The notes beneath the pieces are model-generated. The model saw only the letters and a program-made list of their open reading frames with translations. It was not told the origin of the DNA and ran no database searches. A stretch of 55,630 bases of DNA, the filler included, from Jimgerdemannia flammicorona (taxonomy: Eukaryota): the NCBI GenBank assembly GCA_003990765.1. It is 2 parts of 2 records of this genome, joined end to end, with 100 filler letters (N's around TTAATTAATTAA, not from the genome) between each part and the next. Parts side by side here need not be neighbours in the genome. Positions count along the whole stretch, not along the records: positions 1 to 27,768 come from RBNJ01000604.1; 1 more part is not named here. One strand, 5' to 3'. Shown piece after piece: positions 2,861-38,799 of the stretch. Every line of letters begins with the position of its first letter. Positions within the stretch are counted from its first letter, which is position 1. The position numbers were made by a program, and so were the translations under genes.

Positions 2861-4039
2861 AGGACACTTCAGGCGATGCGGACATAAAGGATGAGTAGGC
2901 TAAAACCACTGTTGGATTTCATGTCCATGTTTAGCGTTTGGTCGTTTGATTACGGCTTTGTTTGGGTTGGTATATACCAGTGACCTGCGACTTGGTTGAC
3001 TTCACTCAGGTGTCGGTGCCACTAGTCTCAAATTCTTCGACGAGCTGATAAGGCGGGGCTTGTAGTATCCAAATGGGCTGAATTGTATTGTGGCTGTCGA
3101 CTTTTTCGGGGGGTTTTTTAATTCTCATCCTTTTGATTTTTCTTTGCGGGTATTGAAGTCGAGCCACGATCGGGGCGACTGTATATACGAATCCCGCTGA
3201 CTTTTTTTTTTTTTTTCTTTCCTACATAGTAATTAACTAGACGAACGCCAGGATTTAGTTTACTGATTGAGTAGATATCGAAAGAACAAGCCTACGACAA
3301 ACCAAAGCCAGTTCCATCATTATAACTAACACAACAGTTTCCGAAGGATGAAATAAGAATACCCCTACTTCGCAACCAGCAGCAGGCACGGAATTCCCGA
3401 GTCACATGCACGTCTTCAGCCTCAAAGTCAAACACCAAGACCGAGTCCTTCGAGTCCCCCGCTACTCAGTCTTGGAATAGCCATTGCTCGCACCGTCATT
3501 TGACAACCACTCTCAAGCGCACCGTAAGCAAGATCATTGAGCAGGCCAATATCTGTTCCGAGGAAGCGAGGATACGTATGTCCTGAACTATAACGATGCG
3601 TCCTCTCTCATGTTTCCCTCCCAGTCCTCGCCATTCAACGTTGTGCCTGCAAATGGCGAGCCGGAGCATATTGGGATGCTCAAGAAGGGTCGCTAACGGT
3701 GTAAGTGGAGTCGTTATTTATTTATTATTATTTTTATTATTTTGGGGCAGTAGGAGGCGGGCTATCGGATTGGAACAAAAAGGAAAAAAGAAAGTAGAGG
3801 TGGATGGAGCCGGCTCGGCTTCTCGCATACCTCACAAACCCACATTAACACCCTCACCATCTACATGACCGTAGGCCTACGAAAAATCTGACCGGATCCG
3901 TCTCGACCAAAGCCGTCCTCCGAATTGCATTTGTCATCAGCAAACATCTGCGGTCGGCTCTGACACGAACGGACGGGTGGCGAGGCTCGGCGCGCATGGT
4001 GAAGATAGGTAGGAGGAGACGCAATCGTGTGTGTGGACG

Positions 4040-4366
4040 GGAGAGAGTTATTGGCGGGGAGGAAGTTATAGGCAGGGAGATGCTGGCGGGGAGGGAGTTG
4101 TGGGCAGCGAGGGAGTTGTAGGCGGCGAGGGAGTTGTGGCGGCGAGGGAGTTGTGGGCGGCGAGGGAGTTGTAGGCGGCGAGGGAGTTGTGGCGGTGAGG
4201 GAGGTGTAGGCGGCGAGGGAGTTGTAGGCGGCGAAGGAGTTATGGGCAGCGAGGGAGTTGTGGGCGACGAGGGAGTTGTGGGCGGTGGGCGGCGAGGGAG
4301 TTGTGGGCGGTGAGGGAGTTGTGGGCGGCGAGGGAGTTGTGGGGGGTGAAGGAGTTGTGGGCGGGG
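4040..4366. repeat. 18-bp G-rich tandem repeat (unit approx. GGCGGCGAGGGAGTTGTG), about 18 degenerate copies
   Basis: Directly visible; it generates the PPTTPS/GGEGVV periodic ORFs in the ORF track. Confidence 0.95.
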
Positions 4367-4391
4367 ACAGAAATGTCACACATTCACGTCC

Positions 4392-7300
4392 TTACCGTTG
4401 CCACAAGCAACAAGATTCAAGGACGCAACATTTTTTGTAAGCAACATTGAATTCACAGATGGGTATAGTGCAACGTATATACGTCTGCTTGATTTTGGCC
4501 TTTATCCAATCCTTCTGGGTTTTTGATAACCTTGTTCCTTTTATCAGTTCGACTTGTTTTGACACCTTCTTCATAACTTCCTTCATGGCGAACATGCTTG
4601 CGCTTTCTTCGTTTTCGCCATTGCTCATGAAGAGTGTTTTGTTCTTCTGCCAGATTTTGCCGAGTTCTAAGTAGCACTTGATCGCGCTGACGCTTGTTTC
4701 GTCCGCCCTTTTCTCCAAGTTCAGGGCTTTTATGACTAGGTATGCCTCTTGCTCTGCAAATTCCGCGTCCGCCAGATCTCTCGTTGTGATTTCCACCCAT
4801 CCGGCCGCGTGCCATACCCTTATGTTCTCGAAGCAGCTCAGGACTCTTGTCGCGCTTGTCCCAAGTTTTTCCTTGCTCATCAGTAGCTCTTGAACTGTTG
4901 GCATTTCTTCTGGTACGGTTATTTCTGGGGCTCGTACCGTTTCCTCCTCCTGTAGTGGTTCTGGCTGTAGCTCTTGTTCCACTTGTCTGTCGATTTCTGC
5001 TTCGCTTATAATACTGATTTCCTCTGGTGTTTCCGTTGCGCTTTCATCGGCCTCGCTTTCTGCTGCGATTTGGATCGGGCTTCGCAGGTTTCTTGAGATT
5101 CTCCTGGCTCGTTCTCTTCTGGCTCCTACTGCCCTTCGAATTGCTCGTAGTTCCGTTACTTGGTTTTGCAGATTTTGCGCCAGTTCTGCATCTTCTTGTG
5201 CTTCTTGTTCCAGGCGGTTGTAGCTGTTTTGGATCATTACTGCATCCCATTCCAATGCTTTGATCCGGTCTTCCATGTAGGCTAGCGTCGCCTCCTTTGG
5301 TATCTCCATTATTGGCTCGTAGCAGTAGAGACATATTCCTCCAATTGTCTCTTCAATCGGTAGCCTGATGCCGTTGACTTCGGGTTCTTCCCCGATCTTG
5401 CGTCTTTTGTGGTTGGCGTACACCATGCCCAGGCACTTTGTGTGAATGCTCTTGTCACAGTGTGGGCAGAAGAAGAGTGCTTCTTCCGGCTGCTTCTCCT
5501 CTAGGCAGGCTACGCAATTTTCAGCGGTTGCTTGGCTTCTGCTGCGCTTGGCGGTTACTACCATTTCAACAGATCCTTCTTGCTCGTTGCGGAAGTATAG
5601 GGACTTGTCCCCTCGGATTACCATGATCTCCTTGGGTCGTAGGTTTTCCATTACTGCTTTGGCTCCATATACCAGTTGCTTGGGCAAGGTGTCCGGGAGC
5701 CTGGTTTCTTCTTGCAGTAGTGGTACTCCTTCGTTGACTACTACTCGTGGCTGTTGTAGGGTCTTCCGTACTGCGCTTGTTGCTTTGTGTTCCATCGTGT
5801 GACTGCGTGTGGAGAAGTCGTGGTGTATGTTGATGTTTCCGAAGCGAGCTGTCAGCATATTTATATTTGTCGTGGTTGTCCACGTGTTGGTCTGCTGATC
5901 TTTCTTCCACATCTGTCCTTGTATTTCATCGATTTCTTTAAGCAGGTCCGTGACACTGCCGATCGATTCTTCTTTTGGGAGTTCTCCGACTTCTTTTTCG
6001 ATGTCTTCGATTTCCTGCATTGCAATTTCGTACGTTGTCTTCTTTGTTTTTGCGCCTTCTCTGGCTGCCTTGAAGAACGTATTCCACCATACTTCGGTCT
6101 CTACTTGGTCTACTGCTCCTGTCCAAGGTTTCTCTTGCTGGTGGTTTTCTTTATCGCTATCCGATTCTTCGGTATGTACTTGTCCGTTGAATCTTCTTTG
6201 CACTCCTTCTCTTCCATACGCGTTTTCCGTCATGAAGCTTTCTGGTTTGTCCGGCGTCCAGGTTGGATCTTCCTCCTGTTGGGGGTACCAAGCTGGTTCA
6301 TTGCTGGACTGGTTTGGGATCGTTGTTTCCCATTTGTACACGTCTGCCTGCCAGTCTTGCAGCTTGTTCTTGCCGTTTCTCTTTGGTTCCCAGACTGGTC
6401 TTTGCTCTTGCCAGCTGTTGACGGTTTCTTCTTTCCTTGCTTCCCAGGCTGCCCATTCCTTGGGTTCTCCTTGGTAGCTTGGCTTGCTTCCGTATGGTCT
6501 CCGTTGTTTTGGCCTTTCCGCTAAATCATATCCTCTCTCGCGAATCCGGATTTGCTGTTTGTGTTCGCTTCCTATCTGCAGGAATTCTTTGGCGACTCCT
6601 TGCTCCTTGCTGAGCTGGTCCCGGTATTGTTCGAACTTTGAATCCTTCCTTCCCCAGTGGGTGTTGAAGTGGTGGGCTTCTTTCGGATTCGGTCCTGGAA
6701 GGCTCTTGATTAGTTCTTCTGAGCGGATTCTTCTCCACTCTTTGTGAGCTTCTAGGGCTTCATGTTCCTCCCATCGTTCCTGGATTCTTCTTTTTGCTTC
6801 CATGACTTCTTCCGGCATTGGCGGGTCATAGGCTTGGTCCTCCGGGTCCGAGTCGTAGTTGTTTTCTGGCCAGAGTAGTTCTTGTTCTTGGTTATCTATT
6901 TGTATGGCTTCGATACTGATTTCTTGCTCCAGCTCATTGTCCTTTATATCCTTTGGGAAAGGGTCGGGTCTCCCCCCCAGGGCAATAGCTCCAGCGCGTG
7001 ACAGGTAATCTGAAAAGCCGTTCTCAGAACCCTTGATCCATTTGAAAGATACATTAAGGCCTTGTAAGAAGAATATCATTCTTCTTTCAGCTCCGGTAGG
7101 GGGCTCCGTAGATGCCTTGCTTAGGTATGTATCCGGGTTTGTCACCTTTGTCAGTGCTTGGTTGTCAGTATAGATGATAACCTCCTGGTTTGTCATCCAT
7201 GGGTTGGTCACCAGGGCGTAGTAGACGGCGTATAGCTCCGCCTTTTGCTGATTGAACAACTCCGGCTGTTCCTTTGCCTTTTTGAACTGGACTAATTTCG

Positions 7301-8543
7301 GAAGGTTTCGGCTTCCCAGGCCCAGCAATCTTGGTGGTACTGTTGCTTGGTAGATTATCCAGCCGACTCCGTATGGTGATGCGTCCGTGTTTACCCTGAT
7401 TGGTTCCTTTGGGGCTTGCAGTTCCAATGTGGCATGGTTCACCAGTGCTTGTTTGATTCGTTCGAAAGCGACTGATTGCTCGTTTTTCCAAAGCTCTTCC
7501 AGCTTTCCTTTTTTGTTTACGACGTTGTTCTTGCATTCCATGAGGGGCGCTATGGTCTTCGTATAGTTCGGGATATAGTGAGCGAAGTATCCGAACTTTC
7601 CGATGATGGCCTGCAAGTCTTCCACTTTTGCTGGTTTCGGGAGTCCTAGGAGTGATTTAACCCTTCCTGGGTCGATATGAATCCCCTTCGTTGTTACTCT
7701 TGATCCCAGCAGCGAGACTTCTTGTTGTCTTAGGGCCATCTTCTTAGGCGCTAACTTGATGCAATGCCTTCGGCATACCTTGAGGAATTCTTCCAACGAG
7801 TGATCATGCTGTTGAACTGTTTTTCCTCCTCCTGCCGTATCGTCGATGTATGGTGGTGCAATAAACTTCTTTTGCACCAGTGGTTCAAACGCGTATTTCA
7901 TGAAGCCTTGCCATGCTCTTGGTGCGTTGTGGATTCCAAACAGCATCCTCGAGGGTCGAAGGTATCTTCCATTGAATGTTCTTACTACCAGGAGGTTTGC
8001 ATGGTGTTTTTCTACTGCAATATGGTGGTAGGCCTTTGTTACATCTGCCTGCCAAATGAATCCTCCTTGGGTTATTTCCAACAGTGTCTTTTGGACTTCC
8101 TGGCTTGTTGGCATTTCAAATGGTATTAGCTCCGTGCTCTGATTGTACCCTCGGTAGTCAATCACCCATCGTGGTTTGGCTTCCTTCTCCTGCGTTTCTC
8201 CGGTTGTTAGCTCGTCGTGCCCACTGAATACCAGGAATTCTTGCGCGGCCGCGAATGGTTGTTGCACTTCTTCGAACCATCCGGCCTTGATCATTTCATC
8301 GTGCTCCTTGATTCTTGCTTCATAATGTTCCTGGTGCTGAGGATTTCTTTGCGGAAGCCTTCCTGGGCAATGGTACGGCTTTCCTCCAATCTTCAGTCTT
8401 GCTATGTACGGTGGTGATGTGGTGATGATTTGAATGTCATTGATAGTGTTGGCGAAGACATCCTTGTATTTGCATAGTAGTCTTTCTAGTTGTTTGTCCG
8501 GTGGTTTTCTTGCGAACTTGGTCAGGAACTCCGTGTCGGTCAT
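4392..8543 (-). CDS. pol: Pol-like polyprotein: reverse transcriptase, RNase H, long acidic/coiled region, C4HC3 PHD/RINGv finger; last 29 codons are read-through into flanking DNA
   Basis: RT motifs: RWVIDYRGYN, ADVTKAYHHI, MLFGIHNAP, YIDD (7839-7850), LLG. RNase H motifs: VNTDASPYGVG, KAELYAV, YTDNQAL, SDYLSR. Finger: CVAC..CPHC..HTKC..CLYC (5322-5516). No DDE integrase core was recognised. Confidence 0.92.
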   Translation of the reverse strand: MTDTEFLTKFARKPPDKQLERLLCKYKDVFANTINDIQIITTSPPYIARLKIGGKPYHCPGRLPQRNPQHQEHYEARIKEHDEMIKAGWFEEVQQPFAAAQEFLVFSGHDELTTGETQEKEAKPRWVIDYRGYNQSTELIPFEMPTSQEVQKTLLEITQGGFIWQADVTKAYHHIAVEKHHANLLVVRTFNGRYLRPSRMLFGIHNAPRAWQGFMKYAFEPLVQKKFIAPPYIDDTAGGGKTVQQHDHSLEEFLKVCRRHCIKLAPKKMALRQQEVSLLGSRVTTKGIHIDPGRVKSLLGLPKPAKVEDLQAIIGKFGYFAHYIPNYTKTIAPLMECKNNVVNKKGKLEELWKNEQSVAFERIKQALVNHATLELQAPKEPIRVNTDASPYGVGWIIYQATVPPRLLGLGSRNLPKLVQFKKAKEQPELFNQQKAELYAVYYALVTNPWMTNQEVIIYTDNQALTKVTNPDTYLSKASTEPPTGAERRMIFFLQGLNVSFKWIKGSENGFSDYLSRAGAIALGGRPDPFPKDIKDNELEQEISIEAIQIDNQEQELLWPENNYDSDPEDQAYDPPMPEEVMEAKRRIQERWEEHEALEAHKEWRRIRSEELIKSLPGPNPKEAHHFNTHWGRKDSKFEQYRDQLSKEQGVAKEFLQIGSEHKQQIRIRERGYDLAERPKQRRPYGSKPSYQGEPKEWAAWEARKEETVNSWQEQRPVWEPKRNGKNKLQDWQADVYKWETTIPNQSSNEPAWYPQQEEDPTWTPDKPESFMTENAYGREGVQRRFNGQVHTEESDSDKENHQQEKPWTGAVDQVETEVWWNTFFKAAREGAKTKKTTYEIAMQEIEDIEKEVGELPKEESIGSVTDLLKEIDEIQGQMWKKDQQTNTWTTTTNINMLTARFGNINIHHDFSTRSHTMEHKATSAVRKTLQQPRVVVNEGVPLLQEETRLPDTLPKQLVYGAKAVMENLRPKEIMVIRGDKSLYFRNEQEGSVEMVVTAKRSRSQATAENCVACLEEKQPEEALFFCPHCDKSIHTKCLGMVYANHKRRKIGEEPEVNGIRLPIEETIGGICLYCYEPIMEIPKEATLAYMEDRIKALEWDAVMIQNSYNRLEQEAQEDAELAQNLQNQVTELRAIRRAVGARRERARRISRNLRSPIQIAAESEADESATETPEEISIISEAEIDRQVEQELQPEPLQEEETVRAPEITVPEEMPTVQELLMSKEKLGTSATRVLSCFENIRVWHAAGWVEITTRDLADAEFAEQEAYLVIKALNLEKRADETSVSAIKCYLELGKIWQKNKTLFMSNGENEESASMFAMKEVMKKVSKQVELIKGTRLSKTQKDWIKAKIKQTYIRCTIPICEFNVAYKKCCVLESCCLWQR

Positions 8544-8563
8544 TTGTTCGCACGATGACCGAC

Positions 8564-11500
8564 TTATTGAAAACTCGGCTTAAAGGTGAGGTGCCTTTGC
8601 AGGCCGGGTTCTCGTTCTGGTATTTCTTCCCAGTTTCGTCGGTATTGTTCCTTATCCTTTTCGACTACTGTCTCCTTAGTCGGGTATTCTGTTCGCAGCG
8701 TCCCTTCTCTTTCTTGAGCGACGTATTCTCCGGTTTCTTCAACTTCTACCTTGGACTTGCTTTGCCGATGCCATGGTCTGGCTTCTGGTGCTCGGAACTT
8801 GATTCCGGTTCGTCCATTCGTAGGAGAGATGATTTCTAGGTGATTCTCCACGAAATCTATTCCTCCGACTACTATCATCGTCATCTTATTGCTTCGATCT
8901 ATTTCGCCATTGTTTAGTCGAAGCTTCCATCCTTCAATTCCTTTCAAGGCCACTTTCTTCCAGCTTGCTCCTGCTAGCGCCGAACCCACTGTAGTTCTGC
9001 TGGCTGCTAGGTTGATTGTTATCAGGCAATTCTGCCCTGTCCCATCGGCCTTGCGGATTCTTCCGTCCCAGTATAACCCATCCTTGTCCGGGTTACTGTG
9101 CGCTAGGGCCACTTGGTTCCATGGGTTCCCTTGTCTTAGCGCTTGGTTTCTGGGCGTCGCCGGCAGCGGTGGTGCGGCTTGCTGGTAGCTGGCTGGTAGT
9201 TGTGTTTGCCTTGTCTGAGTCTTCCTGCGGGTGGTCACCGGCTGAAGACTCGAGTCCTCTTCCAACGGTTGGACATTTACTGGGATGTTCCAACATCCTT
9301 TGTCCTCATCGCGTTCCCAATATTCACCTATTGGTGTGAGCGATAGTTGGTTCCCTAAGTCCTGGCTTATGTTCTCCGCCTTGGGCTTGGGAGAGGTCCT
9401 GGTCGTTTTCCTGTTCGTGTTCTTCCCTTGGTATTCTTGAATATTTGCGCGGCTTTCTGCGAAGCTAGCCGGGATTTCTACTCCTTTTCGTAGGATCTTC
9501 TTCTCGCTGTATAGGATGTCCCATCCATTTTCTTGTAGGAACTTATTTCCGAGTAGGAAGGATGCGCTTCCTGCTCCTTTTAGGACAGTTAGGTTTATCT
9601 GGTAGTTTTGTTCTCCTACCTTAAACTTGACCTGGTGTATTCTTCCGAGTACCCCAATGGGGGTTCCTCCAGCTCCTAGGAACCTACGATATTCCGGCTG
9701 TAGTTGATCTCGAAGTTGCAGCCTTTCGAGGATTTCTTCGCTGATTACGTTTTCGTCCGCTGCTGTATCGACCTTGGCCTTGAACGTTTCTTGATTGCGC
9801 TTTAGGGTCACCCATATTTGTCCTATAGGGCCTGTTGCGGTGCGCTTTCCCAGTAGCTCGACTTCTGGGGCTTGTTCGATTACTTCGATTTCTTGGTCAG
9901 ACTGATATTCCCAGTCTTCCTCACTTGATGGTTCGTCGTGCAGTTCTTGAATTTCTTCGCCAAGTCGTTCTTCCTCTCCTTCGCTGTCTACTTCGATTTC
10001 ATATGTCTTTCTTCCGACGCGCTTAGTTCTTCCAGTCTTGAAGAACCTTCTTTTCTTCCTGAATTCCACCTTTCTTGTTCCTTTTCGGTGGAATGGCTTA
10101 TCTTCTTGAGGGTCATCGATGTCCATTGGTCTTCGACCTCCTCGATCCCTTCTGAATGCTTCGACGGGCATTTCTTGCTGTATTTCCTCGGCCGCTGGTC
10201 CACTTCTTGGATATCTGGTTCTTGACCAATATCCTTTGTTGTAGTTGGTCTTGATAGTCCCTTCTTGTACGGCTGCCACGAATTTTCCTTTGAATATGTT
10301 AAGACAGACGTCCAGTACTTGTTGCGCCGTGGTTGCTGGTGTTGCTGTTAACATTTGGTTCTGCCTGTAGTGGTACGGCAGCCATTCGGGCATCTTTCCT
10401 AGGATGAATTTCTCTTGTGTTGTGAAGGTGTCATCCGTTAGGCTGGCTATCCTCATTCTAAGCTCCAACTGCGTATTGAAGTGCTGCATGTCGTGGATAC
10501 TTTGCGCATTTGACCTTGGGAAGTTGTACAACTCTTCCCTGATGATGGTCACTTGCTCCGCTCCGAAGAATTTTTCATGGATTAATAGTCTTAATCCTTT
10601 TCGTTCTCCTTGCTGGTCCGTGTAGCTCATCCAGCTCAGCGGTTTGCTGTGGTCCGTCATTGGTTTGCTAAGGACATCGTTTATCAACCATTCCTGTGCA
10701 AGCTCCTGGAATCTTGATCCGACTGCGGCTACCAGTCTGTAGCTGTAGGATTTGACGGGTTCGTTCGGGTTCTTCGGGTCTGCCCAGTAGTTTACTAGAT
10801 ACCCTGCTGCTACATAGGCCAAGTCTACTTGTCCTATGAATGCGGGTACTTCCATCGGGTTACCGGTGAATGGTTTGATGTTATCAAAAATCTTGATACT
10901 CCCTGGGAGTGTAAGATTTACTGGTCCTTCGGCTTCCACTGGTTCTTCTGGTGGTGGTGGATTATGCGGTGGATGTTCTGGATTTGTGTCGTGGTCATCT
11001 TGATTCTCGTAGTATTGGAGAATTGCTGCTCCAAAGATTTTTAAATCTTCATCGGAGAGGTTTCCCCAGCTACTCTTGACGACGTATTTCCTCATTGCTG
11101 ACTGAAGAAATATCACGAATTTTGGTGCATCGTGTTTGTAATCGTTGTACAGTCTGTCTGGCCAAGACACCGAGATCGGTGTTGGTCTTGACTGCCTTGG
11201 TCGGTTGATTCCATATGTTACGTCGTATAGACTCCATCCGTATTCCATTGCCCATTGACTTCCGATTAGTCCTCCTGTCTTCCAATCGTTTGGTAATCCT
11301 GGGACTCCTCCGATTCCTTGCTGTCCTTGGTATGCCATCATTGTGCGAAGGATTAGGTCTAGGAACCTAAGGTAGATGTCATCTCTTGGGTAATTTGTTC
11401 CTCCGTTCGGATCTTCTGTTGAATCCGAAAGTACCCAGCAATCTCCTGCTAGGTGAAATGCCTCTGCCTCGGTGGGCATGTCTGGAAGTTCCCAAGCCCA

Positions 11501-12919
11501 TCCGGCTTGTCTTCTTGGTGTCGGCATTTTCGGAATGTTTCTTCCGTTATTGTTTGGCAGCCTTGGTGGTTCTCCTCCGGCGCCTGCCATTCTTCTCCTA
11601 TCGCTGGCCTGAGCTGGTCTTGTCAATCTTGCTAGGGCTCGGTCCAGCTCGCTTTGCGTATCCTTTGTGCCTTCCACATTCCTTAGTAGCTCGAAGTTTT
11701 TGTTTTCTCTTCGTGCTCTTTCTCTGCTTGCAGCTATTTGTTGTGCTGCGTTTTCATCCAATCTTTGTCGGACTCTTCCTGCCGGGAGCGCGTTTCGGCT
11801 TGCTTCTGGTGTTACTTGCAGGAATGGGTTTGGCTGTTCTCGCACCGTTCGGATAACTGTAGGCTGTCCCATGATTTGGGCCCATGGTTGCTGTCTTTGA
11901 TCGTTTATCCGTTGTATCGTTTGTGCGATTACTCCAGGATTTGCGCTTCTCCTTTGTCCGACTCTTGCTGTTGCCGCTATCAATTCATCTGTTGTTGTGA
12001 TCTTCGTAGGTTTGGCTGTTGATCCTGAACCTTGGGGTCCCTTCGGCTGTTCGAGGTCGAAATATTCCTTTGGGATCGATTCTGCTCCAAACCATTCTCC
12101 ATTTTTCTTCTTGATGAATGCTGTCATCCTTTTCGTATTATTGATTTTGTCTTCCGGCCACTCGAATTTCTTCAGTATGTAGTCGAAGAAATTGTTCTGT
12201 ACTGAGGTTACTGAGATCCCTCCGTACTGTGATATTTCCAATGCGATGTTTAGGTCCGTATCTCGGAAATGTCCTCCTAGGTGGTTGGCCACAAATATCA
12301 TGAAGTCGTGTCTGACCGGCTTCCTTTTGAGTACTTGTCTGCACTTCAGATATCCTTCTTCCAGGAAATTTGCGATTTGTGCTGACAGTTCCTTGTATTT
12401 TTCTCCGTTTCCGTAGTTCTTTTTCCAGAAGGAGTACCAACGAGATCTTCCTTCTTGTGTACGAGTTTCCATGGTTCGTTCACTTGTTGCCAGTTCTCCG
12501 TCTGATTCATGGGTCGGGACTGGTTCTCCATGGATGGTTTCGTTCATTTCTTCAAGTCTTGCGCGGATCAGCGCTGGGTCTTCCAGTTTTGGTTCTTCTG
12601 GAATTTCGATTGGTCCTGAAGGCCAGAAGTCTTCGGCTTCTTCTTCTTCTAGGACTTCGATTCTTGGTCTGGCTGAAGTTCGGGTAGTCATCGAGGGTGA
12701 CCTCCTTGAGTCGCTTGATCGCTGAGAGTGTTCACGGGCACTCCTCCGACTGCGGCGGCTTCGTACTTCTTCTTCCAGCTCTTGTATGCGTGCTTGTTGT
12801 TGGCGAACGATTTGTTCCATTCGCTGGTCTGTGTTCGGTGCCAGCTGTGTGCTTGCCGATACCGTGTTGTTACTCTCATCATTGAGAATGCGGTAGATGA
12901 CTCTTCCGTGTTGGGACAT
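8564..12919 (-). CDS. gag: Gag-protease polyprotein (1451 aa)
   Basis: N-terminal coiled coil; retrotransposon capsid-like segment IKPFTGNPMEVPAFI; basic patch RKKRRFFKTGRTKR; retropepsin AKVDTAADENVIS...FLLGNKFL (catalytic Asp codon at 9769-9767). No CCHC knuckle is visible. Confidence 0.85.
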   Translation of the reverse strand: MSQHGRVIYRILNDESNNTVSASTQLAPNTDQRMEQIVRQQQARIQELEEEVRSRRSRRSAREHSQRSSDSRRSPSMTTRTSARPRIEVLEEEEAEDFWPSGPIEIPEEPKLEDPALIRARLEEMNETIHGEPVPTHESDGELATSERTMETRTQEGRSRWYSFWKKNYGNGEKYKELSAQIANFLEEGYLKCRQVLKRKPVRHDFMIFVANHLGGHFRDTDLNIALEISQYGGISVTSVQNNFFDYILKKFEWPEDKINNTKRMTAFIKKKNGEWFGAESIPKEYFDLEQPKGPQGSGSTAKPTKITTTDELIAATARVGQRRSANPGVIAQTIQRINDQRQQPWAQIMGQPTVIRTVREQPNPFLQVTPEASRNALPAGRVRQRLDENAAQQIAASRERARRENKNFELLRNVEGTKDTQSELDRALARLTRPAQASDRRRMAGAGGEPPRLPNNNGRNIPKMPTPRRQAGWAWELPDMPTEAEAFHLAGDCWVLSDSTEDPNGGTNYPRDDIYLRFLDLILRTMMAYQGQQGIGGVPGLPNDWKTGGLIGSQWAMEYGWSLYDVTYGINRPRQSRPTPISVSWPDRLYNDYKHDAPKFVIFLQSAMRKYVVKSSWGNLSDEDLKIFGAAILQYYENQDDHDTNPEHPPHNPPPPEEPVEAEGPVNLTLPGSIKIFDNIKPFTGNPMEVPAFIGQVDLAYVAAGYLVNYWADPKNPNEPVKSYSYRLVAAVGSRFQELAQEWLINDVLSKPMTDHSKPLSWMSYTDQQGERKGLRLLIHEKFFGAEQVTIIREELYNFPRSNAQSIHDMQHFNTQLELRMRIASLTDDTFTTQEKFILGKMPEWLPYHYRQNQMLTATPATTAQQVLDVCLNIFKGKFVAAVQEGTIKTNYNKGYWSRTRYPRSGPAAEEIQQEMPVEAFRRDRGGRRPMDIDDPQEDKPFHRKGTRKVEFRKKRRFFKTGRTKRVGRKTYEIEVDSEGEEERLGEEIQELHDEPSSEEDWEYQSDQEIEVIEQAPEVELLGKRTATGPIGQIWVTLKRNQETFKAKVDTAADENVISEEILERLQLRDQLQPEYRRFLGAGGTPIGVLGRIHQVKFKVGEQNYQINLTVLKGAGSASFLLGNKFLQENGWDILYSEKKILRKGVEIPASFAESRANIQEYQGKNTNRKTTRTSPKPKAENISQDLGNQLSLTPIGEYWERDEDKGCWNIPVNVQPLEEDSSLQPVTTRRKTQTRQTQLPASYQQAAPPLPATPRNQALRQGNPWNQVALAHSNPDKDGLYWDGRIRKADGTGQNCLITINLAASRTTVGSALAGASWKKVALKGIEGWKLRLNNGEIDRSNKMTMIVVGGIDFVENHLEIISPTNGRTGIKFRAPEARPWHRQSKSKVEVEETGEYVAQEREGTLRTEYPTKETVVEKDKEQYRRNWEEIPEREPGLQRHLTFKPSFQ

Positions 12920-12963
12920 GTCGTTGGCTTCGTTTGATGAAGTTGTGAGTTCTTGAGTGTTGT

Positions 12964-13261
12964 TGTTAACCGTTAAACCTTTGATCCTCCGGACCGATTC
13001 AATTCAGTATCTCGCGGCTAGGCCAGGGGTAAGTCTTATGCGTCCACTGAAAATTGACTCTTGAAGTCTCGAGGCTAAGCTTTAAGTACACCGTAAAATA
13101 GGGCTTCGGAGAAGGTTCCCGTATTTTTTCAGTGTAAGCGTAAAAGCTATTGTGGGGTTTATTGGGTTTGTAAAAGGGTGAGGAATTCGAGTTCCAATAC
13201 ACCTGGTATTTATACATTTGTTAGACCTCTTGGTCCTTACTATTTGCAAGCGGTGTTAACA
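12964..13261 (-). promoter_or_regulatory. Single LTR-like promoter/polyadenylation region of the retroelement
   Basis: Minus strand reads: purine-rich tract (about 13312-13265), TGTTAACA (13261-13254), TATAAAT (13214-13208), AATAAA (13163-13158), GTTAACA (12970-12964), then the gag ATG at 12919. Only one copy is present. Confidence 0.55.
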
Positions 13262-13329
13262 AATTTCGCCTATTCCTCCTCTGCTTGTGACTTTCTTTTC
13301 ATCCTAATCCCCAGCGAAAAGCGAGTCAC

Positions 13330-13590
13330 TTATACCGATTCCCCACTTCCCCAGACGCTCGATCCCCAATCATTTGGGTCATCTGAGGGTACCTGTAGGA
13401 CTTGTTGCTGCTCTTCTTCTGACGGCATTCCGCCTGTTCCGTTGATCATGAGATTCCAATATAGCTCTTGCTGACTAATTAGCTTCCTCAGCGTTTCGAT
13501 CTCATGCGCTGCAACCCTTGTTATCATACTTGCCGATAAGCCTTTCACCTGGCTTATGAAGTCTTCGCCCATTCCTTCTAGCAGTCGGTA
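13330..13590 (-). CDS. Displaced C-terminal 86 codons of the Pol polyprotein (YRLLEGMGEDFISQV...GSGESV*)
   Basis: The open frame begins at the right junction repeat and has the same composition as the element. It continues ...KAKIKQT in frame if the circle junction is GTACGT. Confidence 0.7.
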   Translation of the reverse strand, partial: YRLLEGMGEDFISQVKGLSASMITRVAAHEIETLRKLISQQELYWNLMINGTGGMPSEEEQQQVLQVPSDDPNDWGSSVWGSGESV

Positions 13591-15048
13591 TATACGTATC
13601 GGGTGGTCGCAGGGTGGGAAAGTACGGCCATAGCCGTGCTGCTGCAGAAAGGTGCGAGGTAAAAAATTCTCACATTTGGGAGTTTGTGAAGGCGGTTAGG
13701 TAACTTAGTAAATACAATGGATGAAAGCGGGAAAATCAAAACACTATATATATATATTTTTTTAACATAAATATTTTTAATAAATCAATGCGATACTTTG
13801 TTTCTATCATTCACGGCCAGCACCCGCGCATGGACATGCATCGGCACTCGTATATAGAACACCTTATTCATGTTTGGCCTTCGAGCTACAGCATTAAGTT
13901 CAACACAGGAAAACCCGGTGCGAAGGATGGGTTCAAAAGAGACGGGCAGAGTTCGGGTTGGGAAGTGCGGCGATTGTCCTATATTCGTGTACACTGTTAT
14001 AGGTATATATATATTCTTTTCACAATTGCTGATTTATTTCCACGACGTTTACATCTCAACGGTCAAGCAAAATTTCCATTCATGGACGTTTTTAACGTTC
14101 AACACTGTGTTATTGGGAATATCGCAAATGCGCGCAGAACTCTGTTGTTTAGATGGCTTCCATCTACATTTCTGACTAGTCGTTGTACTTTAGGCTGTGA
14201 AGCCGTTAACAAAAGAATCGCTTTGTCAAAGTGTGGGCGATATCGTAGGAAACGGTTTCTTGGGATCTTTGACATGGTTTGTGCTTTGCAAGATACATAC
14301 GCTCAAGTGAGAATGACACATTTCAAGCGGAACTTGTTCCGTCTGGGTTTCGAACGAAAGATTGGACAATCCGCGGCCAAAACTCGTGAAATGGAAGTCC
14401 TGAAATTACTTGTCATTCCAAAGCTTTAAAAATATATGGTCTGATTCAAAACGGCAATTAGTGCCCACACTTAGCTTTTTGAGTGTGCCGTAAATTTAAC
14501 GACATAATTAAAATGTACTGGTAAGGGTCGTTAACGAAAATAATTATGTGTCATCCAACTTGACTTTCCTTGTGAATCAGATAATTTATTTTTGTTCACA
14601 GAAACTTGCTTAGTTAGATATATATACATTTAAGCTTAATCTTTTTTGAAAATAGCTCTAATACACAATGAACCATTAAGAGGCAAATTGCAGCGAGTGA
14701 AATTTTGTAACGAGCCTCTATAGCTATAATGCTGGTTGAGTGGAAATTACATTTCTGATCTTAGCGTGGCGCGAATTCCCCACATGGCTTAAGACCATGA
14801 TAGCCTATGCCTCAAATAGTATATACTATTCAGGGTTATTCATATAACTCTATCTTATATGGGGCGTGCTGCAACAAAACCAGACAAAGTGAACTTCTGA
14901 CGTTACTCGGGTGCTAGGCTTAAAGATTTTTCTTTCGCTCACCCCTTCCCGCAACCTTTCAATTATTCAATACCCATCATACATGATAATCACAACAAGC
15001 AAGCTGAAATATAACCCAAAATTCTTTCTTTATTATTATCTCTTGCTG

Positions 15049-15081
<33 letters not shown>

Positions 15082-15117
15082 TAAAACTTCTTTAAATAAC
15101 ATAGTTTTAAAAAAATC

Positions 15118-16757
15118 ATGACCAAAAAAGAATGTTTTAATTGTAAAAATACCAAAGAAGGATTAACTATCAACTGATAAGATCAAGAAGAAAAAGAAAG
15201 AATTGAGTTTTGTTGTTGAGGATGTGCTTAAACTCTCCTGCAACAAGAGTTAGATAACAACACCAATAAAGATTGAGAAAGAAATAAAATAAAGCTCTTC
15301 TGTGAAGCCCTGGAAAAATGTAAAAAAAGGGAGAGTTTTGATTGACCTTTTTGGTATAGAAATATAAGGCAATATGGTAGTGGCAGATGAGATAGAGTTA
15401 CTACAAATTGTCCCCAATGTTGAATCATATTAGATTGAGACGTTACTGCTTATGAAGATAGTCAAGAATATAAATGTTTTCAGTGCCATAATTGTCAAAA
15501 GCAAATTGAAAAGAATCAACAAGATCAGCACTTCATCTGAAATTTAGATAACTCTCCAAATTATAAGTGCCAGAAGAGTGAAGATAGAGATGAGAAAGTT
15601 TGCCATATGTGTGATAACATAGAAGTGCATAAAAAGGGCATGTATAAGTGTTGAGTTTCTGATTTTGGAGGGAGTGTTTTTTCTGGTTCAATTTTAAGAC
15701 CAAATACTAAAGCTCATATATCATTATGCACCAAATGTCATGCTAAAAACTTGCAAAGATCAAATTGAAAAAATAGATAAAGTGTATAAACCAGCAGATT
15801 ATCGAATTAGTATCTCAGTTGGAAAACTAGGTGGTGAGAATTCACCCCACTTCTATATGTGAATAGTTCCAAAATATAAAGAGAACTGAGGCACCATAGG
15901 ATCAAGTAGTAGTTACCATCCAGCCATCCCTGAACAAATAGAAATATCCAAAGAAGCCTTTCAACTCAATACTGACAATATCATTGCAAAGAGGGACAAA
16001 ATAATTGCTCACTTATACAATGATAAATACTTGAGATATATGTATCACTATCTCTACTAAAAAGCATCTTCCTAATGATATCAAATCAATAGATTCTGAA
16101 ATTTGATCTGAAATAGGCAAAATTTTGCAAGAGTTAATGGCAAAATTTGAAGACAAATTAGAATACTATGATTTTACCATAAGATGCCAACTAGGAGAAA
16201 AGGCTGAATGAATGTGAAAAAAAGAAAAATGAGGAGAAAATGTTCCCAATCATGATAAAGTTTATAGCAAATCAGAATTTACTATTAATCTAGTTTCCAA
16301 ATTTAAACTACAAAAATGATGAAGACAATATAGACCAATTAAAAACAACTAATTTGATGGCATGATGGAAAATGAAAGAATAGCAGAAAAAATAAGAGAT
16401 CCTGAAACTTATTATGCTATCTGAAAAGGAGATAAAGATTATTTAAAACAAAAAGAAGAAGCCTGGAAGTTGTGAAAGGAAAAGAACTCCCAGACAGAGA
16501 AAGAGAGAGAAAGAGAAGCTTCTAAATTAATAATCTGAAAAGAAATCAAAGATTTAGAAAGGATTACTAATCAAACTGAAGAGTAAGAAAAACAACTACA
16601 AAGTAAAAGAGCAGAATTAGCTAGACTAGAAGTCCAAATAGCTAGTGAAAAACAATTTAATTAAACTTCTTGAATTGGATTAGGAATAACTTTCACTATT
16701 ATTGTTGGAATATCTATTTACTTATTAGTTAAAGGGAAAGTTAGAGAAGAGAAATAA
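15118..16757 (+). pseudogene. Mollicutes-like (genetic code 4) gene remnant: Cys-rich N-terminus, HIT-like domain(s), coiled coil, C-terminal TM anchor
   Basis: ATG at 15118. About 20 in-frame TGA at Trp-like positions versus 2 TGG, no in-frame TAG, a few TAA and about 3 frameshifts. HIT-like YKPADYRISISVGKLGGENSPHFYMxIVPKY; ends WIGLGITFTIIVGISIYLLVKGKVREEK*. AT-rich and intronless. Confidence 0.75.
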
Positions 16758-20029: not shown

Positions 20030-23000
20030 CAGTTTACAAGCCATAACTTACAGCAAGAGAGTTCCATCTACTTGTAAGTAAATAACATCTCTATACCCTG
20101 AAGTATTTTCTCTGCTTCTCTCGGAGTTGCCGGATTCGATCAGTAGTAATAGCATCCAGTTCTGTAATGCTCAGGAGATTATTACCGAGCTTGATTTCAT
20201 ACCACTCACCATTGGCCTTGCATGCGCCTATCAATAACATGCAGACCTCCTTCTATTACTATCTGAGAATGTTCAAGATGTATATCACTTTGCTAATGTA
20301 TGCTCTATTGGTACTTCAAAATCATCCTTTCAAAATATAGATCATCTTCTATGGAACCTCAGCAACAGTCAACCACCCCTGCCATAATTGGGGCTCCTTC
20401 AGTCTCAGCTCAGCCTATTGCTGTGCTGAGCAAGGAAGAATGAAAGAGGGTACCAAACAGTGAGGAGTTTCTGTCTACGGCTAGACAGATATCAATGTGC
20501 TAATGACTTTGAATATAAGTTTTCGTCATGTTATCAAGCAATTAACTCTTGCTCTGTACCTTTGATAGCATGCAAAACATCTGAAAAGGCTCCATCCTGA
20601 AGATGAATCAAACTTGCCAACACTCAACCAAACTCCATCGGTTCTGACATGGGGAGTTCTAGATTTTTGTGAAGAGGGTGGCCCAAGCCTTACCTTTTCA
20701 CAAGCTTCTGATGGTGAATTCGTGGCAAGGGTGAATGAAGCATTCGGTTCAGCCTCTGACAAACTTTTTGCCAAGGAAAACCTTTGATGAGCAACAAGAT
20801 GGCTGCATTTCCGAGGCCTGGTTGTGTCTGAACTCACCTCAGGAAGCAAGCCTACCATGGCACAGCAAATCGTGCGATATCTCAAAAATGAAGCACCTCA
20901 TGGATTTCGTCTCTGCCTGCCTGATGGGAACACTGTCATTCTGAAGGGGTTACTTCTGCTCATCACCATCACTCATCTTTATGCAATCAGGGTCATCATT
21001 TTCTCCATGTGGAGAAAGCCAATCGAAATTGTACTAGCTACAGATGGGGGGTGCTATACAGTTGCATCTTTGAGACATCAAGATTCAATACTATCAGTTG
21101 AGGAATGGTACCCACTTGAACTGGCCAAAAATTGGATCAAGCGAATAGCTACAGCACATGTGACCTCCACCCCACCAATGGTCTCTCTAGCTGCAGTCAA
21201 AAGACCTCAAAGAGCAGCTCTTAAGTGGAAGGCATCTGTAAATTATGCATTTATTAGTGATGACACACTAAAATATTTGCTGCATATAGTAATATAAGTA
21301 TAAATCATTGTTCTTTCATTTCATTTTCAGATGGTTTACTTACTGCTTATTTTTTTCACTTTACAGGAAAGAGCACCTCCAACATGACTATGAGAAGGAA
21401 GTAAAGAAGAATCTCATGCAGAAAAAACTGGATGATTTCAAGAAAAAAAATATTAACCAGACTTCGCCACCCCAAGGCTATGTCAAAAGTGTACTCAAGA
21501 GACTCAGCAAGACAATAGATACAAGCAACATGAATGGACTTGGTTTATCTATGTGTCTCAGGAGAATTAAAGATCCCAGCACAGTGCAAATATGAAAGAA
21601 AGTAGTGGAAGAATATCTGACAGCCATTTCAATAAATCCCACAACTACTTCCAACATCAGTACTTCTTCAGCTGCTACTCCTTTACAGAATTCTGGTTCT
21701 AGGACGGTCTCAACAGAACATGATGAAGAAGACATGGGTGATGACTACCATATTTTTATGACTACTCTACAGCAGATTGTTCAAGACAAGCACAGCCTGG
21801 CCGATATAGAACAGCAATTAGTTTCTGAACAAAAGGTCAACCATCAAGTATTCGAAGCTTTCTGCAATATTATTCAAGAGGCCACAGATATGGTAAGATT
21901 ATTGTTGCTTTAGAATATTATGGTGTTTATTATTATACTAACTTTACCAAATATCAGGTTATTTCAGGAAAAGTATATTTCCTCATGAGTAATCCAGATG
22001 CTGGATATCTAGATTTGGTGAAGGTTTTCCCTCAAGACTATGATTTCAGAGAGCACAATTCCTTAGTCAACATAGCCTCAATTCCAGAGAACGTATCGGC
22101 CTTGATTGAGGCCGGGTTCTTCTCTTTTGTTCACTTTGAAAACCTATTCTATGGTTGCATTGGAAACACAGTGCAAACAGAGTCTGAGTAAGTAGAAAAT
22201 TATTACGTAAATTTCTATGATTTGTAATGTGTGGACACTATAATTATTACAGTTTATGGTATTAATCTTATTTTTATTTTCCTTAGGCTTTTTGCACAGA
22301 TCAGAAAGGAGATTAATTCAAAAAAAGCAGAGTCTTTGATGATTGATGGTGTGATAAGTCATCACGCAATCCACCAAGCATCGTTGAAGGAGGTATATAT
22401 ATCCATCACAAACATATGGATGGGTGATATTTACAGCCAGAGTTTGTGCAATGCTATCCAAATTCTCCTTCACATTCACCTCACTCCAGCCAGAATGACA
22501 TGGTATCAAGCCACCTGACTGCGGAAGGCCAAGAAAAAGCAGACAGAAAAGAAGCAACAGGGTCTAGACTGACATTTCAGAAATCCAAAGCACCAGATAT
22601 CATGCCTTATGGGCAAACTTGAGATGGCCATTATTAACAACTGACCAGCATCTGTGGTGCAAAAGATTGGAGAAAAGTTGCAACAATTATTGCAGCTACC
22701 TGCCAGGAACATATGACATGGAGGTGAGAGGAGTGATCAGGACATGGCTGTCAACACAGTATCTTCAGATGCTGAGGACACAGAGGAGGAAGAGGAGAAA
22801 GAGAAGGAAGAGGAGGAAGAGGAAGAGGATCAAGATCAGAAATTATCTGTGAAAACCATCTGGGCTCTCCTGTCCATTATGAGGATGCTTACTGAGTCAG
22901 GAAAGATTCAGCAAGTTGTTACAAGTGATGACATCCAACATGCTGCATTCAAGGAAACAATATTTACAGAGAAGGAAAAGATGGTAGCAGCAATAATTGT

Positions 23001-24931
23001 TAATTTTCTTTGGCCATTTATCTAGCAATGCATGGATGATAATCAATTCCCAGAACCTAATGTTCTGATACATGCACCATTAGCAGTATTAGCCAACATT
23101 ATTGCAACTATCACTGGCTTTCCCTTTCTCATTCAAAAAGTGTTGATCAACTCACAGCAAGGCTCTTGTGCATTATACCTCACTGCTGCCAGTGTATATG
23201 ATACATTTCATAAACAGTTGGATATTCCGGTTGATGATACGAACTGGATCACCAACTCCTATCAGGTGGGAAAAACCAAAACTGCCACTTTCAGAGCTTT
23301 TTTTAATACGAATTGGATAGAATCACTTATGGACTCATATAGACTTCATTTTGCCTAGAGGCTGACTTTTGTCAATAAGTGGACTGTACATTTATTAGGA
23401 AAGGCAAAACCTGGCAAAACCTTTCTCAAATCAAATTATGAGGCAAGGAAGAAAGGCAAGATTAATGTTACCAAGTCCATGCCAACCACAGAAATGCTGA
23501 CTTTGGACCATTTGAAAATGGAAGCATTGGCCAAAACCCAGGTATCACAAGTCAAACACTTGACCAGCACACTGAGGTCTTTGCATAAAGAGATTTCACA
23601 ATTGGAGTTGAATCAGATGGACATTGGCTAGAAGATCAGAAAGTCACCATGGGATCTGGGTTCTGACAGCTACTATGAGCTGAAGGAAATTAGGTGGAAT
23701 ATAGTGGTCAAATGGCTTGAAGCCATCAAATTAGAGAAGACACTTGCAAGGGCCAGAAGTTCATTGTACTCCCTAAATAAGGCTTTGCGAACAAAACTCG
23801 CTGCCAGTGCCATGACCACTACTTACACCACTTCTGAAAACAAAATTAAAGAGGACAATATAGAATTTGTAAGCATTTATTATGATTCCCTGTTTTTATT
23901 TTATTTTATTTTTGATTCTTATTGTTCATTCTTCTCTAATATAGATGGATCTACTTCCTGCAATCATTAGGCATTATTCATCAAGGAGAAAAATTGTCTT
24001 TGCTAGAACTGATTCAGGGACTGTTGTTACCTCTATGATGATACCAAGAACTCTAGACGAAATCTTTAGTGACATCAACTGCTTTCAAGCTATTTCAACC
24101 GAGGGTGTCTCTAATATAGAGGCCATGCCATATTCATTCAGCATCGAATGGCTTCCTAAGCCCAACAAAATCACTGTCAATCTGATCAACAATGTCACCT
24201 TCCTCAAGAACCACCAAAAGAAGTACCAACAATGGCAAAAGAGTAATGTAGACGGAGTGACCCAGCAAAAAAAGTTGGCCAAGAAAAGTTGGGAGAGAGA
24301 GATTAAGACTAAGCGAGCATATGGCAAGCTCACTGCTCAAGAACAGAGATGCATTCATGCTCATGTGCCACCTTACCAGCAGGTGCTGAAGACATTTGAA
24401 TCAGAGTACCCAGACACTGCTGCAGCGATGTCTCAGCTTCCCTCCAGCAAGCAGACACCAGCAGTGATTCACTGTATCAGGCATTGGCAGGGGATCAACA
24501 GTACTATCAAGGGACATTGTTGAAGAGGAATGAAGAAAATTCAGGAGCAACACCGCATCTATGGATATGTTGGTATCACAAATGAGTACAACACCTCCAA
24601 AACATGCCTGTTCTGTTTCTCAAGAGTTGTTCTCCACCGGACTTGTCAGACTATTGATGGAAGGAAGCAAGTTGTCTGCTTGAATGGTGTCATTGAATAC
24701 ATTCACCCCCAGTACCCAGCAAGGAGGATCAACCATACTACCAGAGAAAGAGATGCAAATGCAGCTGCAAACATTGCTCTGTCTGAAGCATCAGTCATTC
24801 TAGCTGCTGACTGTCAACCTCTTCCTCCATTTCGCCATGATGCCAATCACACAAGGTACAATCTTGCAAATGAACTCCTTTCAGTCGTGACACCAGAATT
24901 GGTTCCCCGCGACTCTATTCGAGATGAATGA
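20030..24931 (+). pseudogene. Large multi-exon Fanzor (eukaryotic TnpB-like RuvC nuclease) pseudogene; 5' boundary approximate
   Basis: C-terminal RuvC-I IVFARTDSG (D at 24011), IKGHC*RG, RuvC-II TNEYNTSKTCLFC (E at 24584), RuvC-III RERDANAAANI (D at 24752). Upstream in-frame coding blocks are separated by GT..AG introns (e.g. 21892-21958, 22188-22287, 23868-23944). Stops are of the CGA>TGA and CAG/TGG>TAG type. Confidence 0.8.
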
Positions 24932-27768: not shown

Positions 27769-27868
27769 NNNNNNNNNNNNNNNNNNNNNNNNNNNNNNNN
27801 NNNNNNNNNNNNTTAATTAATTAANNNNNNNNNNNNNNNNNNNNNNNNNNNNNNNNNNNNNNNNNNNN
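27769..27868. other. Artificial contig/scaffold linker (44 N + TTAATTAATTAA + 44 N)
   Basis: Symmetric 100-bp spacer containing stop codons in all six frames. Confidence 0.97.
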
Positions 27869-31913: not shown

Positions 31914-32510
31914 GGCTTGGGGCTGCCCCTATACTACTGGCAGAGGGCTGCAAATTTTGTGTACTCTCTTTGCCAACCCTGCTGACCTCTGACCCAGATA
32001 CAGGCTGCTGGAGGGAGCTCCATACTGCTGGCATTGTAAATTTTGCATGCTCCCTCCACCTATTCTACTCATCCCAGACACTTGTGGCTTGGGGCTACCC
32101 CTTGCTGCCAGCAAAGAGCTGCAAATTTTGTATACTCCCTCCACTGATCCTATGTCCACTGACTCTGCCAACCAATCCTGCCCACTGACCCAAGTACTGA
32201 TAGCTTGGGGCTGCTCCTTGCTGCTGGTGGAGGGCTGCAAATTTTGTACACTCCCTCTACCTACTCTCCCCCTCTGCCAACCTCTCCATCCTGGACACTT
32301 GTGGCTTGGAGCTGTTCCTTGCTACTGATAAAGAGCAACAAATTTTGTATGCTCTCTCTACTGACCCCATGCCCACTGACCTGCCTACCAACCTGAGCAC
32401 TAATAGCTTGGGGCTGCCCCTTGCTGCTGGTGGAGGGCTGCAAATTTTGTGTGCTCTCTCTGTCACTGCTGCCAACCCTGCTGACCACTGCCTCACTTGG
32501 GCTGCAATCT
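31914..32510. repeat. Array of about 6 units of 85-115 bp with conserved core GCTTGGGGCTGCCCCTTGCTGCTGGTGGAGGGCTGCAAATTTTGT
   Basis: Cores start near 31915, 32005, 32087, 32203, 32303 and 32406. The intervening sequences are related to each other. Confidence 0.85.
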
Positions 32511-32701
32511 CTAGACTGAGTCCTCAGGTTTTTTTTCCTTTTATTTTTAAAAGGTATTAAATATTCTATAAGGCCAACCAACTTATCTATGAACCCCCAG
32601 GACCTGCCAAATTTTAGCAGCCCAAGCCCCACTAAGACTTCAGACACATATATACTTAGATTATCTCAGCATTCAGTGCACACCTCTTTGGGGCAATAAG
32701 G

Positions 32702-32703
<2 letters not shown>

Positions 32704-32783
<80 letters not shown>

Positions 32784-38610: not shown

Positions 38611-38799
38611 AAATGGTACTGGAGAAAGGATGTGAGGCAACTAGGTCTACCCCACCTGAGAACACTTACTCGACAGGAGTGCTGGAGGCAGGAATTACCA
38701 GATAGTCCCAAGCCATACTACATAGGCTGAAGAAGTCCATTTGATACAGCTGTACACTCCAGTGGATAGAGTGGTGGTTAGATTGGTGAGTTAAATTGG

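Follow-up and report, generated by a model that had tools for sequence, protein, structure and literature searches.

A retroelement without a detectable integrase in Jimgerdemannia flammicorona, with a circularly permuted gene map and possibly fixed ends

Results

Gene content of the element

The window analyzed here is a stretch of 55,630 nucleotides, filler included, from the fungus Jimgerdemannia flammicorona (GenBank assembly GCA_003990765.1), and it carries on its minus strand a retroelement of about 9.1 kb that encodes protease, reverse transcriptase (RT), and RNase H, and in which no integrase, tyrosine recombinase, or pair of long terminal repeats (LTRs) was detected. The pol frame of this element runs off one end of the integrated copy, and an orphan frame enters at the other. 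The explanation that we tentatively favor is a family of retroelements that replicates through a circular or concatemeric form and is opened at a defined site within pol. The element and its coding features are as follows.

4485..13587, minus strand: retroelement body, 9103 bp if the entire 10-mer at its borders is target duplication
8564..12919, minus strand: open reading frame 1 (ORF1), 1451 aa from its Met, with the protease near its end followed by ~320 residues without assigned function
9533..9808, minus strand: retropepsin-type aspartic protease with a DTA motif (ORF1 residues 1066-1157; Pfam 8.3e-10)
8535..8579, minus strand: ORF1/ORF2 overlap and candidate frameshift site, with ORF2 in the -1 frame
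4485..8579, minus strand: ORF2, containing RT, RNase H, and a long tail, with no stop codon within the element
7698..8180, minus strand: RT (ORF2 residues 134-294; intact YIDD; 1.7e-12)
7128..7490, minus strand: RNase H of the Ty3/caulimovirid type (ORF2 residues 364-484; 7.5e-10)
5310..5516, minus strand: PHD-like C4HC3 zinc finger (ORF2 residues 1022-1090), below the Pfam cut-off
4494..4952, minus strand: conserved helical C-terminal domain of ORF2 (residues 1210-1362), shared with the related protein P0005
13330..13590, minus strand: orphan frame YRLLEG...GESV plus stop, 86 codons, with an internal ATG at 13572
12920..13329, minus strand: the sole noncoding region, 410 nt

Both ORFs are intact. 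Read from its Met, ORF1 corresponds to an NCBI protein, and its position suggests that it is gag-like; its protease gives DDI1-like matches among PDB sequences. The two ORFs overlap by 16 nt, where the candidate frameshift site consists of a U-run (AGU UUU CAA UAA) followed, from 3 nt past the stop, by a hairpin with a 9-bp stem, for which z is only -1.4. Beyond RNase H, the ORF2 tail extends for ~840 aa, and together with ~1000 residues of ORF1 these 840 residues have no domain assignment. ESM Atlas comparisons, which serve only as leads, placed ORF1 near gag-like clusters (0.84-0.89) and the ORF2 tail near a RING-type cluster (0.81). AlphaFold models were of low confidence for both the ORF2 tail (four-row alignment; mean pLDDT 42.8) and ORF1 residues 197-1396 (single sequence; mean pLDDT 32.7), and in the latter the protease itself was unfolded.

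Two hexamer biases were also observed in ORF1 and ORF2 (4485-12919, minus strand). AAAAAA occurs once where codon-shuffled sequences hold 9.4, despite an A content of 37%, and AAGAAA occurs 28 times compared with 17 in codon shuffles; a possible cause is that slippery or poly(A)-like runs are avoided.

Boundaries of the integrated copy

The element is bordered by a perfect 10-bp direct repeat, and its two ends carry short imperfect inverted repeats, located as follows.

4475..4484, plus strand: 10-bp direct repeat GTATATACGT, left copy, part of the perfect palindrome ACGTATATACGT (4473-4484)
13588..13597, plus strand: right copy of the 10-bp direct repeat GTATATACGT
13577..13587, minus strand: the 11 nt at the 5' end (coding strand CGACTGCTAGA), which form one arm of the terminal inverted repeat
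4482..4492, plus strand: its second arm, which reads CGTCTGCTTGA in the inward direction and shares its first 3 nt with the 10-mer

On the plus strand of the whole window GTATATACGT is found at these two sites only, 4475-4484 and 13588-13597, and a further match on the minus strand, at 4473-4482, is owed to the left-site palindrome ACGTATATACGT. The 10-mer is expected 0.05 times in a window of this size, and three matches were reached in 0 of 100 shuffles. These exact copies at both junctions, and the perfect palindrome at the left one, agree with the original prediction, which had described a shared 10-mer and proposed a palindromic target. The assembled contig is unbroken across both junctions, and the composition of the element (37% A and 15% T on its coding strand) differs from that of both flanks.

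Read inward, the element ends CGTCTGCTTGA and CGACTGCTAGA agree at 9 of 11 positions. Among 200,000 random sequence pairs drawn from the element, agreement of this kind has a probability of 6e-5 when one register is considered and 1.7e-4 when three registers are allowed. Short terminal inverted repeats combined with a flanking duplication argue for an end-specific insertion reaction, and if the two ends were abutted they would form a small inverted-repeat site resembling those used by recombinases and transposases. The DNA hairpin propensity of the two junctions showed no excess over shuffled sequence. A G-rich 18-bp minisatellite lies at 4049-4394, 80 bp from the left junction, with a unit of about GGCGGCGAGGGAGTTGT in at least 15 copies.

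The split pol frame and its possible join

At the left junction ORF2 (8579->4485) reads ...KIKQT to the last base of the element and then continues for 29 more codons into the flank. At the right junction the minus-strand frame 13695->13330 reads ...IRI-YRLLEGMGEDF...GESV*, with its stop at 13332-13330, so that the orphan frame is open from the first base of the element; counted instead from its ATG, 15 nt from the end, it comprises 80 codons. The chance of an open 85-codon frame at the composition of the orphan segment is ~0.015 by our own arithmetic.

The coding character of the orphan frame was assessed by a codon log-likelihood score trained on ORF1 and ORF2 and compared over 87-codon windows. 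The orphan frame scores +7.5, compared with 24.1 for true-frame windows of ORF1 (standard deviation 9.8, minimum -2.8) and 25.8 for those of ORF2 (standard deviation 6.5, minimum 9.5), whereas off-frame windows have means of -25 to -42 and never exceed 7.7, the noncoding region and flanks score -75.5 to -6.3, and values of -21 to -62 are obtained for the other five frames of the orphan segment. This signal comes from the distal 56 codons (+9.1), and the first 31 are neutral (-1.6 compared with -7.7 in the alternative frame). On this evidence the orphan frame probably encodes protein, with a score toward the weak limit of coding windows. A comparison of the orphan frame with 929 longer candidate proteins returned none that scored.

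ORF2 and the orphan frame are in phase when 0, 3, 6, or 9 nt of the 10-mer separate the two ends, and these in-frame options include abutted ends, which correspond to a plain 10-bp target duplication, as well as a 7-bp duplication in which the other 3 nt are part of the element. The original prediction had joined the ends at GTACGT to give a 9109-bp circle encoding one Pol of 1440 aa, and its coordinates and residues hold and its arithmetic is correct, since 9103 bp plus 6 nt gives 9109 and residues M13-T1366 (1354 aa) plus 86 give 1440. The 6-nt join is indeed in frame, but it is one of several that are, and it needs both microhomology and a 4-bp duplication. The alternative tail that had been read when the full 10-mer is retained (YIPTARR...CSA*) likewise exists, as an out-of-frame tail, and the single noncoding region of 410 bp described at that time was recovered at 13329-12920. 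Continuity of pol across the join, and with it a circular form of the element, is what we infer from this arrangement.

A single regulatory region

The 410-nt noncoding region, between the end of the orphan frame and the start of ORF1, holds the following signals.

13305-13291, minus strand: purine tract, directly after the orphan stop
13214-13209, minus strand: TATAAA
13163-13158, minus strand: AATAAA, 51 nt downstream of TATAAA and the only one on the coding strand of the element

A first-order Markov model predicts 6.4 copies of AATAAA, and the probability of finding one or fewer is 0.008; within the ORFs none is observed, compared with 3.4 in codon shuffles (P = 0.036). The order on the element, namely pol end, purine tract, TATA, poly(A) signal, and ORF1, occurs once; the same succession is seen in going through an LTR or a pararetroviral intergenic region. 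Because there is a single regulatory region, the integrated copy has no terminator after ORF2 and would yield no terminally redundant RNA. A circle or a head-to-tail array could yield such RNA.

Searches for integrase, recombinase, and terminal repeats

Pfam searches of ORF1, ORF2, and their unassigned parts (E up to 1) found no integrase or tyrosine recombinase, nor did searches of the element against NCBIfam, PHROGs, and PDB sequences, and eight alternative-frame or antisense ORFs inside the element matched no Pfam family. Motif scans of the element proteins found neither HHCC nor CCHC, and they gave no HxxR...Y box that was plausible. Profile comparison by hhalign with 18 Ty3-like Pols gave a match to the protease alone in ORF1 (E 2.4e-4) and none to the ORF2 tail. 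As a positive control, the Pfam rve model detected, at 9e-9, the integrase domain of a decayed Ty3-like element at 45040-45378 of the same window. Within 3000-15500 there was no LTR pair, no inverted terminal repeats (ITRs) plus internal complementary region (ICR), and no split direct repeats; the longest repeat there is at most 27 nt, barring the 18-bp minisatellite and poly-T. The window contains no second copy of the element and no further copies of its termini. These results uphold the protease-RT-RNase H layout originally proposed, which the Pfam domains of ORF1 and ORF2 reproduce, as well as the reported lack of an integrase or tyrosine recombinase and of paired LTRs; the profile search for rve and tyrosine recombinase domains that the original prediction had suggested detected neither, with an rve model that works on the control element.

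Relatives of the element

All close relatives are Jimgerdemannia flammicorona proteins, four of which are distinct from the proteins encoded by the element.

P0004: 1181 aa, 84% identical overall
P0006: 773 aa
P0029: 1404 aa, a gene model in which ORF1 and ORF2 are fused
P0005: 331 aa, 34% identical over ORF2 residues 1210-1362

Family proteins are recorded under the accessions RUP43714.1, RUP44054.1, RUS33723.1, and RUP47352.1. Within the family, three of these relatives are 92-96% identical in RT-RNase H, 61-77% in the tail, and 65-79% in ORF1. Conservation of RT-RNase H so far above that of the tail and ORF1 argues for purifying selection on a replicating lineage; dead copies that decay neutrally would not show it. 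In proteins from outside the family, RT-RNase H identity reaches at most 32%, and the 21 nonfamily proteins found at E <= 1e-10 among 5540 candidates are Ty3-like, 17 of them carrying rve. An RT-RNase H tree of 25 rows, from which P0002, P0003, P0005, and P0028 are omitted because they lack RT, unites the four rows of the family (100/100) at the end of a stem of 3.4 changes per site. The placement of this group is unreliable, and neither caulimovirids nor DIRS elements are represented among the references. Among RTs of solved structure, the best match is that of Ty3 (65 bits), and that of cauliflower mosaic virus (CaMV) gives 59 bits.

A HMMER search with the last 426 residues of ORF2 gave P0005 as its one match; since it missed P0004, which is 71% identical, this is an incomplete census. 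The end of P0005 bears on the boundary of the element. Its final residues, FIKDK-KMP-stop, align to WIKAK-IKQ-(T)-junction of the element, with a single gap before the last ~15 residues and none within them, and the P0005 stop lies opposite the first codon of the 10-mer; by our own arithmetic, a random break in 9.1 kb would match the P0005 end about 1 time in 1000.

A scan of IMG/VR with ORF2 gave two pattern matches, of which none was confirmed. In a metagenome scan with the ORF2 C terminus, 14 weak loci on long contigs (39-44% identical over 53-73 residues; E 1e-4 to 1e-3, computed among candidates only) were judged to be chance coiled-coil matches and were set aside. P0029 aligns to ORF1 residues 782-1064 and 1152-1479 and skips the protease part, 1065-1151, which reflects either a deletion in the P0029 copy or an intron called by the gene model.

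Other features of the window

The decayed Ty3-like element used as a control spans 42242-45378 on the plus strand and is of the ordinary kind, its broken frames encoding dUTPase (9e-21), RT, RNase H, and rve; the RTs of this decayed element and of the one studied here are 24% identical. GC skew is -0.25 to -0.52 at 32000-39000, a stretch that includes an RT fragment at 34103-34585 (minus strand), and +0.30 to +0.51 at 50000-55000, and the two stretches may be inverted copies of a strand-asymmetric repeat. Consecutive open frames split by single stops occupy 20791-24928 on the plus strand and match no Pfam family except for a weak and probably spurious Fib_alpha; they may represent a decayed long gene or an unknown element. 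Runs of 44 N at 27769-27812 and 27825-27868 were read as a scaffold joint.

Discussion

The favored explanation and its alternatives

In the explanation we favor, the locus would hold a young and apparently single copy of a multicopy retroelement family that is so far known only from Jimgerdemannia. The genetic map would be circular, with the last ~86 codons of pol lying at the opposite end of the integrated copy, so that a complete pol and terminally redundant RNA would come only from circular or head-to-tail DNA, as in pararetroviruses. The chromosomal copy would have been opened at a fixed site in the 3' part of pol, marked by the 11-nt inverted repeats, and inserted into a palindromic TA-rich target with a duplication of 7-10 bp, in a regular end-specific reaction performed by an enzyme not yet recognized, which might reside in the ~1000 residues of ORF1, in the ~840-residue tail of ORF2, or be supplied in trans. 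The fixed opening site and the insertion enzyme are inferred; the matching end of P0005 together with the terminal inverted repeat points to a fixed terminus, and a fixed terminus points to a regular insertion mechanism. If P0005 ends at a flank, or at a contig break at a repeat boundary, that would place the same terminus in a divergent lineage.

Several observations weigh against this explanation. It rests on one examined DNA copy, and none of the retrieved homologues crosses the pol junction, where the original prediction would have them read from KIKQT into YRLLEG. The codon score of the orphan frame is at the low edge of the coding range. A reciprocal or conservative crossover at the shared 10-mer would leave pol out of frame with the orphan, as a site-specific recombinase, homologous exchange, or break-and-swap at the palindrome centers keeps the full 10-mer in the circle, and with the full 10-mer retained Pol ends after 28 other residues. 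We know of no retroelement integrase that matches a 7-10-bp duplication with CG...CG ends. No catalytic insertion domain was found, and the structural models are too poor to reveal one. No primer-binding site was recognized in the element with the motifs used: matches to the tRNA-Met primer-site motif within two mismatches number five in the window (5.4 expected by chance), none of them in the element, and no tRNA genes were found in the window for primer comparison. The end of P0005, finally, could be a natural stop, a gene-model artifact, or the end of a contig.

The original prediction was that an episomal, pararetrovirus-like circle with no insertion machinery of its own had been captured once, at an arbitrary point and by microhomology repair at a palindromic target. 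The circularly permuted map that it described is supported by the junction frames around one promoter/terminator-like region, and this map, the palindromic target, and the failure to find an integrase or recombinase are all what such a capture would leave; caulimovirids likewise endogenize passively as filler DNA (PMC13308828). The proposal of arbitrary breakpoints is not supported, however, because P0005 ends at the same codon as the junction in this window, a coincidence of about 1 in 1000, and because the two ends share a 9/11 inverted repeat. In addition, a perfect 10-bp flanking repeat exceeds the usual microhomology of repair, the GTACGT circle also requires its 4-bp duplication, and the family has diversified within the host genome with its RT conserved, and we regard accidental capture as distinctly unlikely. 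The same terminal inverted repeats, flanking duplication, and P0005 end would be accommodated by a linear element that has fixed ends but passes through no circle, in which the orphan is a separate small ORF or a relic, ORF2 stops at the 3' end, and insertion with a duplication of 7-10 bp is performed by an unrecognized enzyme or by one acting in trans. The in-phase relation would then be an accident, of a kind that arises one time in three, and the orphan would use its own ATG, 15 nt from the end. Such an element, however, would have an ORF2 without its own stop codon, an ORF that begins so close to the end, at 15 nt, would need a promoter outside the element, and with the only AATAAA just past the 5'-side TATAAA and none at the 3' end there would be no properly terminated or redundant RNA, which leaves this alternative improbable, if somewhat less so than accidental capture.

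Another alternative is that the locus is a secondary product or an artifact, such as a re-integrated one-LTR circle, a unit of a tandem array, or an assembly collapse, derived from an ordinary but nonautonomous two-LTR Ty3-like family that borrows its integrase. The noncoding region resembles an LTR both in what it contains and in how this is arranged (purine tract, TATAAA, AATAAA), decayed Ty3-like elements bearing integrase are abundant in the window, and the assembly is scaffolded with N gaps. Yet the whole circle encodes no integrase, the edges of the putative LTR are not TG...CA, and a primer-binding site is not recognized in it; both flanks join at the same element coordinate with a perfect repeat, in a contig without a break at either junction, and the matching end of P0005 and the terminal inverted repeat would be left unexplained. 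This origin therefore also seems quite improbable, to about the same degree as accidental capture. Returning to the circular family with a defined opening site, a virus-like episome and a transposable element with a circular intermediate are indistinguishable on the present data.

Comparison with known systems

The element resembles the Caulimoviridae in its order of protease, RT, and RNase H without an integrase, in a map of ~9 kb that closes into a circle, in having one promoter/polyadenylation region that implies terminally redundant RNA, and in being permuted in its chromosomal copy, and the CaMV RT is about as similar to that of the element as is the RT of Ty3 (59 compared with 65 bits). 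It differs in that its host is a fungus, that no movement protein, zinc-knuckle capsid (there is no CCHC, and the protease is the only Pfam match of ORF1), or tRNA-Met site was detected, that its Pol has a tail of ~840 aa with a PHD-like finger, and that its insertion looks end-specific, whereas caulimovirid insertions are scattered and rearranged. A paper on caulimovirid endogenization makes no mention of fungi (PMC13308828).

Like the element, the Ty3/gypsy elements (Metaviridae) place protease, RT, and RNase H after a gag-like ORF and have ORF2 in the -1 frame, and they supply both the best solved-structure RT match and the nearest nonfamily proteins. Ty3-like elements typically make a duplication of 4-6 bp and have TG...CA ends. 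The element studied here has instead a duplication of 7-10 bp and ends that are not TG...CA, and it lacks an LTR pair, an integrase, and a zinc knuckle; its RT is also remote, at no more than 32% identity and on a stem of 3.4 changes per site.

DIRS elements occur in Mucoromycotina, and the DIRS/Ngaro group, like the element, has an RT related to the Ty3 type, RNase H, no DDE integrase, and a circular DNA intermediate that is presumed to enter the chromosome by recombination. This group, however, is defined by a tyrosine recombinase, by terminal repeats (ITR plus ICR, or A-B-A-B), and by the absence of a protease (PMC3783388), and in the element neither a recombinase nor such repeats were detected and an aspartic protease is present.

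The element therefore falls outside the definitions of all three groups, of Ty3/gypsy because it has no LTRs and no integrase, of DIRS/Ngaro because it has no recombinase and no such repeats and does have a protease, and of the Caulimoviridae because a movement protein, a zinc-knuckle capsid, and a tRNA-Met site are all missing and the insertion does not seem to have been passive. For the split pol itself the closest parallels come from DNA elements. In SSV1-type fuselloviruses the attachment site lies inside a gene of the virus, which integration splits and the circle restores, and the circles of IS3/IS911 elements have abutted inverted repeats around a spacer of a few nucleotides. The element would share with them a gene that is split by integration and whole in the circle, and joined ends that form a short inverted repeat plus spacer; those, however, are archaeal and bacterial DNA elements with known integrases or transposases, and here the element is a eukaryotic retroelement. 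Taken together, it is most like a pararetrovirus in gene set and map, and most like an end-specific mobile element in its chromosomal placement.

Implications for fungal reverse-transcribing elements

The reverse-transcribing elements of fungi are generally assigned to one of three kinds, namely LTR elements, which have an integrase, DIRS/Ngaro elements, which have a tyrosine recombinase, and non-LTR elements. Integrase-less circular pararetroviruses are known from plants (Caulimoviridae) and animals (hepadnaviruses). Literature searches covering open-access papers and bioRxiv preprints brought to light no fungal element with a layout such as this one. It is possible, though on balance unlikely, that the element represents a new class of fungal reverse-transcribing element, one that replicates as a circle, has a pol gene that is whole only in that circle, and is inserted by a novel enzyme acting at a defined inverted-repeat site within that gene. 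Such an enzyme would be neither a DDE integrase nor a tyrosine recombinase and may reside in the PHD-finger tail or in ORF1. A fungal lineage that has protease, RT, and RNase H but lacks an integrase, with a single regulatory region and a chromosomal copy that is permuted, would fill a gap between the Ty3-like retrotransposons and the pararetroviruses, and it would provide a testable case of the loss of integrase or of its replacement by another insertion mechanism.

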